Source of the DNA: Candidatus Shapirobacteria bacterium
GTDB lineage: Bacteria; Patescibacteriota; Microgenomatia; 0-14-0-10-38-17
DNA: 59,882 nt
Assembly: GCA_028695445.1 (NCBI GenBank)
Contig: JAQVIV010000002.1
Coordinates: 1 to 59,882, forward strand
Reading direction: 5' to 3'
Numbering within the stretch: the stretch's first letter is position 1; each line of letters starts with the position of its first letter. Positions 4,427 through 4,686 of this stretch are shown here, in pieces. A model generated the notes under the pieces. The model did not search any database. It saw only the letters and a program-made list of their open reading frames with translations, and had not been told where the DNA came from. The translations under genes and the position numbers were made by a program.

Positions 4427-4686
4427 GAGATAATTTCCAATTACCAATTTCCAAACAAATTACAAATAAATAAACATGGCTAAATTGCTAAATGGTTATA
4501 TGGCTGGCGCGCACTAAAGTGCGCTACTTCAAAAACTGGAGTAGCGGGCTTTCCACCAGAGGCGGACAAGTAGCTCGCGCTTTGGCATTAAAAAAACAAT
4601 TTAACAATTAAGCAATATAACAATGTTTTTAAATCATTAGAAATTGAATAGAAATTAAAAATTAGAAATTAGAAATTAAATAAGAC
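4427..4686. repeat. mosaic repeat (E stutter, C arms plus GC core, module A)
   Basis: atttccaattaccaatttccaaa; ggctaaattgctaaatggttatatggct; GC core 4506-4581; caatttaacaattaagcaatataacaatg; aaatcattagaaattgaatagaaattaaaaattagaaattagaaattaaa. Confidence 0.75.

Follow-up and report, generated by a model that had tools for sequence, protein, structure and literature searches.

The closest described counterparts of the elements analysed here are the GTAG-tagged REPs of Di Nocera, De Gregorio and Rocco (2013, PMC3733652). In the parts of that paper on which we draw, these are palindromes of ~20–40 bp, one foot of which carries an unpaired GTAG; they pair as inverted dimers with short spacers in two arrangements (HH and TT), fall within a genome into several subfamilies of stem and loop, are patchily distributed among relatives, lie between co-directional or convergent ORFs, are sometimes nested as dimers in larger AT-rich palindromes and include in-frame intragenic copies. 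The repeats described below resemble them on each of these points. They differ in their host, a CPR bacterium (Microgenomates/Shapirobacteria-type) with a genome of 0.7 Mb, in a copy number in the tens per genome, in the very short stem (6 bp) and invariant TTTA loop, and in the presence of three copies within the S10 ribosomal-protein operon. The same parts of the paper give eight phyla in total and name the Proteobacteria, Cyanobacteria, Chloroflexi and the PVC superphylum, none of which is CPR.

Our elements also resemble the REPIN–RAYT systems (Bertels and Rainey 2011, PMC3116915) and the BIMEs of E. coli, in which an inverted pair of REPs with a short spacer forms one long hairpin, as one of our dimers does on both strands, and in which the presumed mobilising enzyme is a Y1/HUH transposase. 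Unlike those systems, the RAYT (REP-associated tyrosine transposase) resident in our genome is truncated and there is no population of identical REPIN copies. Among the transposases themselves, subclass 2.4 of TnpA_REP, which equals RAYT group 4 (Quentin, Siguier, Chandler and Fichant 2018, PMC6006769), has the NH[IFV]H and WQ motifs and the length of ~194 aa that we find in the RAYTs of relatives of our host, and is likewise patchy across phyla. What we describe is an element of familiar type, in a lineage for which the searched literature makes no mention of it: nothing that we found there links REPs or RAYTs to Patescibacteria.

A different comparison is with the autoregulatory leaders and attenuators of r-protein operons, for example the E. 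coli S10 leader, which is bound by L4. Like these, our elements place a structured, RNA-capable sequence within an r-protein operon. Unlike them, they are neither position-conserved nor strand-specific, they are found at unrelated loci too, and they come with neither a terminator nor occlusion of a start site.

The window, that is the whole stretch of 59,882 nt that was analysed, is one contig (C29) of a 695-kb genome assembled in 33 contigs with 41% GC (labelled G000). In a comparison of RpsC with contigs that did not include close relatives, the best named match was to Candidatus Woesebacteria at 49% identity, a rough placement within CPR/Microgenomates. Its S10 operon contains, in order, rplC (1144–1782), rplD (between rplC and rplW), rplW (2545–2832), rplB (3034–3813), rpsS (4154–4426), rplV (4687–5139), rpsC (5162–5797) and rplP (6050–6460). 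Three GC-rich elements, A (2927–2984), B (4506–4581) and C (5861–5936), sit in the junctions rplW|rplB, rpsS|rplV and rpsC|rplP, where the spacers are 201, 260 and 252 nt long, and they end 50, 105 and 113 nt, respectively, before the next start codon. We consider it very probable that the GC-rich core at these sites is a dimer of GTAG-tagged REPs of the RAYT-linked kind in a CPR host, and not a dedicated regulatory RNA.

All three elements are assembled from one unit of 24–25 nt, G(A/G)AGTAGCG-N3-TTTA-N3-CGCGCC. It folds into a hairpin of 6 bp closed by a TTTA loop, with GTAG unpaired at the 5' foot; its tail is CGCGCC. All 12 units that a strict search pattern finds in the genome have GTAG ahead of the stem, as does every strict match in its relatives; in a minority of looser copies the tag is replaced by ATAG, CTAG or TTAG.

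Element A consists of a plus-strand unit, A1 (2927–2950; AAGTAGCG-GAG-TTTA-CTC-CGCGCC, with the GTAG tag, the 6-bp stem and the TTTA loop), followed by a minus-strand unit, A2 (2961–2984; the plus strand reads GGCGCG-AAC-TAAA-GTT-CGCTACTC). The stem of A1 belongs to the GAG/CTC subfamily, which has 12 members among the units listed. The GTAG tags of this dimer point outward (HH in the terms of Di Nocera and colleagues), and the whole dimer folds into one long hairpin on either strand. Elements B and C have the converse arrangement, a minus-strand unit followed by a plus-strand unit with the tags pointing inward (TT). Their first units, B1 (4506–4529, minus strand; CAC/GTG subfamily, with GGCGCG-CAC-TAAA-GTG-CGCTACTT on the plus strand) and C1 (5861–5884, minus strand), are identical. 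The second unit of B, B2 (4539–4581, plus strand), is a canonical GGC/GCC unit, the commonest subfamily in the relative G001, and reads GAGTAGCG-GGC-TTT^A-GCC-CGCGCC with an insertion of 19 nt in the loop (CCACCAGAGGCGGACAAGT, 4553–4571, plus strand); it holds T4575 and T4581, which form G:T wobbles, and A4555. The corresponding unit C2 (5894–5936, plus strand) has the loop insertion at 5908–5926, and every stem in it is perfect. The insertion, of consensus CC(A/G)CCAGAGGCGGACAAGT, contains a small ccRcc/ggcgg hairpin and recurs elsewhere in the genome, at C10:27358–27394. The gap between the two units of the B and C dimers is ~9 nt as annotated, or 7 nt (AAAAACT) if measured between the complementary TACTTC and GGAGTA tag stretches.

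This anatomy bears on how the region was first read. The bases and coordinates quoted in the first-pass annotation are all correct (gcgcac-taaa-gtgcgc at 4509–4524 and 5864–5879, gcgaac-taaa-gttcgc at 2964–2979), but the interval 2926–2988, which it took for a third copy of the same element, is a differently arranged dimer whose matches to B and C span 23 nt in direct (91%) and 31 nt in inverted orientation (87%). It had also described mutually exclusive helices, in which the 3' segment could pair with either of two partners. The complementarities are present, but they follow from the design of the dimer: the dimer being palindromic, each CGCGCC tail complements the GGCGCG of its partner and each CGCTAC the GTAGCG of its partner, so that alternative helices are only apparent. 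In the fold of C, a multiloop of three hairpins, the 3' segment has both its halves in helices simultaneously.

The stems of the family covary. Our search pattern placed no constraint on the three inner stem pairs, which in the 150 units listed amount to 450 free stem cells. Watson–Crick pairs occupy 421 of these (93.6%) against 34% expected from composition, and 18 distinct perfectly paired stem types occur among the same units. The 56 distinct sequences give a covariation score of 0.470, compared with 0.132 ± 0.017 for shuffled data, in which 0 of 500 shuffles reach the observed value, and with at most 0.12 for slid partners. This is a hairpin-forming element whose stems are maintained by compensatory changes, and many stem variants co-exist as subfamilies because selection acts on hairpin formation. 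The compensatory C:G to A:T exchange that had been proposed between the copies thus has its counterpart, far beyond chance, at the level of the family once more copies are aligned; the particular exchange was not a double substitution in place, CAC/GTG and AAC/GTT being pre-existing subfamilies with 11 and 23 members, respectively, among the units listed from four genomes. The covariation is real but is no pointer to RNA, as mobile DNA palindromes give an equal signal.

The distribution of the units was determined with two patterns, a strict one (AGTAGCG-N3-TTTA-N3-CGC), applied to 61 genomes, for which the reversed-pattern control gave 0 matches everywhere, and a loose one (TAGCG-N3-TTTA-N3-CGCG with one mismatch allowed), for which the control gave 0–3. 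The window's own genome has 12 strict and 22 one-mismatch matches. Of the four genomes of the same genus, G001 has 14 and 32 and G002 has 41 and 80, and both G003 and G004 have none with either pattern. The sister genus gave 8 and 26 in G005 and none with either pattern in G007, and G042, from another family of the class, gave 2 and 67. In the remaining genomes the strict search found no units except for one poorly paired match in G053. A range from 0 to 80 units within one genus is the signature of a copied element and not of a conserved regulator. The 22 units of G000 fall at ~15 loci on 8 contigs, all of them intergenic and 50–330 nt from the flanking ORFs, and most of these loci are inverted pairs. 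They are found in a gap between two tRNAs, in the rpsJ/tuf region, by membrane-protein genes and by other unrelated genes, mostly between co-directional genes. This dispersed copy number is low against that of proteobacterial REPs. In G001, many units are no more than 500 nt from the end of a contig.

We inspected the corresponding junctions in seven relatives, after locating the S10 operon in each. No units are found at the matching junctions of G003, G004, G005 and G007. The rplW|rplB spacer measures 25–79 nt in G003 to G007 against 201 nt in G000. The rpsS|rplV spacer, 260 nt in G000, is 36–56 nt long in G003, G004, G005 and G007, and is 165 nt long in G002 without containing any unit. At rpsC|rplP the spacer is 28–31 nt in G003 and G004 against 252 nt in G000; in G001 and G002 this junction does have units, but in other combinations and arrangements. 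The spacer of G002 shares with that of G000 both the left flank (CATGGTTATATGGCT|GGCGCG) and the AT-rich module proximal to the start codon, and as these are common to the two genomes the junction was probably colonised before they split, its core having turned over since. In G006 a different family of GC-rich palindromes is found at those S10 junctions.

The most direct case for a link between the GTAGCG family and a RAYT comes, as far as sequence can indicate, from G042, a distant genome. There, contig C17 encodes a protein of 240 aa that passes the NCBIfam model NF047646 for the REP-associated tyrosine transposase (82 bits against a cut-off of 80, with a full-length match), and the gene has clusters of TAGC(G/A)-N3-TT(T/C)A-N3-CGCG units on both sides and three in-frame units inside it. 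The motifs of this enzyme are NHYH and YIHQNP, in contrast to the NH[IFV]H and WQ of subclass 2.4 (PMC6006769). Within the genus of our host, G002 encodes an intact RAYT of 193 aa (C1:17575–18153) with NHIH, WQ and YIxDN motifs and with an in-frame GTAG hairpin of the sort described for subclass 2.4 (PMC6006769). The gene adjoins rpsJ–tuf, which bear GTAGCG dimers, and a pseudogene copy of it in the same genome is located ~64 nt from a unit. In G000 the gene for this RAYT is divided between two contigs, C22 and C31, with an end overlap of exactly 127 nt; a stop follows just past its internal hairpin, ahead of the W and Y motifs, and on its sequence the gene is a truncated pseudogene. No intact cognate RAYT was found in G000 and no unit adjoins the remnant, nor was a 2.4-like RAYT detectable in G001 (an assembly of 70 contigs) despite its 32 units. 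The hairpin inside the intact gene of G002 and the remnant of G000 (GTAGGGGCGGAC...) is that of a second GTAG family and not of the GTAGCG family, and for this reason the 2.4-like RAYT of the genus is only a candidate partner for the GTAGCG units.

Five Y1_Tnp ORFs of G000 (about 220–251 aa) were also considered as cognate transposases and were rejected, having unrelated flanking hairpins or direct repeats of their own. Their best NCBIfam match is the REP-associated tyrosine transposase model, with scores below its cut-off, and their length and motifs (PNH[YF]H, FQ(G) and (R)Y[IV]HLNP) fit subclass 2.1, which is not REP-associated (Quentin et al., PMC6006769).

From these observations we infer a non-autonomous repeat that would have spread through the intergenic DNA of some Shapirobacteria-type CPR genomes, most likely by the action of a REP-associated tyrosine (HUH/Y1) transposase on a hairpin of single-stranded DNA. 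Two inverted units form a palindrome like that of a REPIN or BIME, which can fold on each of the DNA strands and in RNA of both polarities. Since the RAYT of G000 survives only as a truncated pseudogene, the copies in this genome have probably lost their mobility. The dimer is no clear candidate for the replicating unit, because most dimers are heterodimers of different stem subfamilies in combinations that change from locus to locus. In a REPIN the doublet itself is copied; here, the only pair of dimers of identical type, B and C, is part of a spacer duplication of 210 nt. As to the strand on which the hairpin is formed, the stem mismatches on the GTAG strand are A.C in ~14 units and G.T in ~5, in a small and non-independent sample. 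An excess of A.C is unexpected were the hairpin of the GTAG strand the selected substrate, and the CTAC strand could be the one that is kept foldable.

The B and C elements stand apart in that the whole spacers are paralogous. The segments 4476–4680 and 5831–6043, both on the plus strand, are ~90% identical through AT-rich flanks, the REP dimer and an AT-rich module that abuts the start codon. They differ by ~17 substitutions and one indel of 8 nt over ~211 aligned bases, the substitutions being distributed as 3 in 76 in the core and ~14 in 135 in the flanks, which are not clearly different. B and C would have arisen one from the other through duplication or conversion of the entire AT-rich spacer and not through REP transposition, and this duplication needs another mechanism, for example recombination or conversion among the AT-rich modules. 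The flanks are moreover mutually inverted, positions 4066–4094 being 90% complementary to both 4588–4616 and 5943–5971, and a flank of AGCCAT(A/T)TAAC type is common to several dimers elsewhere. Other genera have different GC palindromes within like AT-rich arms at matching junctions, and REP dimers nested in larger palindromes are reported in the parts of Di Nocera et al. (PMC3733652) referred to above. All of this would suit a composite, MITE-like cassette, in which the whole ~200-nt module (module C of the first-pass annotation) moves or recombines by means of its AT-rich repeats or an unknown transposase, with the GC-rich hairpins as passengers and no part for a RAYT. As an account of the family we judge it unlikely, since it explains the duplication of B and C and not the family as a whole: the flanks are missing at many units and dimers (as at C14 and C1, and on the left at C6), and the lone unit has by itself the anatomy of a GTAG-tagged REP and surrounds the RAYT gene of G042.

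The REP reading must also be weighed against a cis-regulatory RNA on the sense strand, either an attenuator-like or an r-protein-binding leader, in which alternative helices would regulate the S10-operon cistrons that lie downstream. Such an RNA would be in keeping with the covarying stems, with the position of the elements, co-transcribed inside an r-protein operon, and with the folding of C, whose plus strand has a predicted energy of −43.6 kcal/mol (z −5.3). The antisense strand, however, folds equally well or better. The minus strand of C gives −39.9 kcal/mol (z −4.1); the plus and minus strands give −34.3 (z −2.9) and −30.3 kcal/mol (z −2.2) for B and −28.0 (z −5.0) and −32.2 kcal/mol (z −6.3) for A, so that in all three elements the two strands are comparable. 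Between co-directional genes the units lie in both orientations, the GTAG strand being sense in 13 cases, one of them doubtful, and the CTAC strand in 10; equal frequency on the two strands had been named beforehand as a mark of a DNA-level repeat, and the count speaks against a sense-strand RNA.

A more specific argument for RNA came from the core differences between B and C, of which there are three (T4575/C5930, T4581/C5936 and A4555/G5910). As the minimum-energy fold of C pairs C5930 with G5902 and C5936 with G5861, T4575 and T4581 in B do form G:U pairs in the sense strand, as had been proposed in support of sense-strand-specific substitution. These are only two of the three differences, however, and since all three are GC-to-AT transitions, two wobbles and one mismatch are what chance would give. 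The third, A4555, disrupts the small ccgcc/ggcgg hairpin in B, as had been noted, but it is not confined to that one copy, the same base being found in the independent copy at C10:27358–27394. We extended the comparison to the mismatch-bearing units that could be oriented to transcription in G000 and at 12 loci from G001, G002 and G005. The sense strand has the wobble in ~9 units (4 of which are near-identical copies on C10) and A.C in ~8, so that the family as a whole has no sense bias.

Other tests of the RNA reading agree. Searching 2800–6100 against Rfam 15 gave nothing at gathering thresholds, and with E values up to 10 there were only chance-level matches to microRNAs and sRNAs, so no known RNA family was recovered at either setting. 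Terminator and promoter scans gave counts at the level of shuffled sequence; no terminator-like site was found on the sense strand at any of the three elements, the sole match at an element being antisense. Occlusion of the start site is impossible, because the elements end 50–113 nt ahead of the start codons. With units also located between tRNAs, beside tuf and rpsJ and among unrelated genes, and with same-genus genomes that have none at the corresponding junctions, the attenuator or expression-platform layout suggested by the first-pass annotation is not upheld, and we regard a dedicated regulatory RNA as highly improbable. It is scarcely credible that the units are host-selected DNA or RNA structures without mobility, which arose and were kept in place as nucleoid-protein or gyrase sites or as mRNA decay barriers: E. 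coli REPs do have such roles (reviewed in PMC3733652), and our units are strictly intergenic and mostly between co-directional genes, but near-identical units at unrelated loci, and 0 to 80 of them within a genus, are hard to explain without copying, and units are associated with RAYT genes.

As GTAG-tagged REPs within an operon, the units probably form their hairpins in mRNA too, because the operon transcript runs through them. By analogy with REPs elsewhere, the mRNA hairpins may slow 3'–5' decay of the upstream segments, as a by-product and not as a dedicated switch. That the dimers in the ribosomal superoperon have been recruited to a role in RNA, as barriers to decay or sites of processing, seems to us unlikely; if it were so, they would cut the polycistronic transcript into segments of unlike half-life, a cheap and portable means of tuning r-protein stoichiometry with few regulators. 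Stem covariation by itself is no evidence for RNA, and one candidate for a new structured RNA can be struck off. The units, together with their AT-rich cassettes, lengthen the spacers between cistrons in the ribosomal superoperon and interrupt metagenome assemblies. If our reading is right, REP/RAYT systems inhabit the genomes of CPR bacteria (Microgenomates-type) of less than 1 Mb.

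A bona fide gene for a REP-associated tyrosine transposase (RAYT) is found in G042, a genome from another family of the class, at positions 1081–1803 of locus L051 (contig C17). The open reading frame itself contains three in-frame REP units (1356–1448; translation ...RRRLKSANPNYLRGLKSANPTNTGIANFSSR...), and clusters of REP units lie to either side of it. In the source genome, G000, two contig ends outside the window, C22:1–260 (reverse strand) and C31:1–203, share an overlap of exactly 127 nt, and joining them gives the coding sequence of a RAYT resembling the REP-associated subclass 2.4. 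This sequence contains a GTAG hairpin in frame (GTAGGGGCGGAGCCCCGTGTCCGCCC), is truncated directly behind it and has neither the W nor the Y motif. In this genus rpsJ–tuf is separated from rplC (G000 C14:895–1489; L055, at C1:16800–20200 of the congeneric genome G002). The RAYT gene of G002 is positioned here, between a LamG-like gene and rpsJ, and at the matching site G000 has four REP units without a RAYT.

Family-wide, and reading the GTAG strand, mismatches in the REP stem are A.C in ~14 units versus G.T in ~5, indicating that wobble pairing is kept more often by the complementary CTAC strand.

Distinct from the GC-rich core is an AT-rich module (…CATTAGAAATTGAATAGAAATTAAAAATTAGAAATTAAATAA) which stops a few bases short of many start codons. 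It occurs in the window at 1091–1138, 4087–4152, 4618–4683, 5981–6046, 8505–8554, 9648–9691 and 11172–11221, with dozens of further copies in both orientations across the G000 genome. In G006, from a sister genus, another GC-rich palindromic element (GTCGTCATTCTGG…CCAGAATGAC) sits between AT-rich repeats of the CATTGTTAC type at the same operon junctions, rpsS|rplV, rpsC|rplP and rplB|rpsS (L064, contig C6), and the rpsC|rplP junction of G005, likewise of a sister genus, holds a GTAG-tagged hairpin from yet another family (GTAGGGGCGTATTGCATACGCCC). Upstream of rplC, a 126-residue open reading frame on the minus strand (window 250–630; MKKKTIQSFTDLKAWKEGHQLV…) looks like a putative four-helix bundle of the '23S rRNA intervening-sequence protein' type.

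Many REP units of the congeneric genome G001 lie less than 500 nt from contig ends (contigs C15, C27, C38, C41, C53, C61 and C70), so the assemblies are broken by the REP repeats. On contig C33 of G000, a run of Ns flanked by duplicated sequence adjoins a Y1 gene. Another stretch of G000 (L001, C1:3799–7074), in which a REP dimer and a Y1 gene resembling subclass 2.1 accompany a tRNA cluster, matches its counterpart in G002 (L039, contig C5) with 97.5% DNA identity across 2.85 kb. The Y1 proteins of the two are 100% identical, whereas other orthologous Y1 loci of these genomes show 75–80% identity; this sequence comparison points to a recent event of transfer or conversion, or else to a contig that both share.
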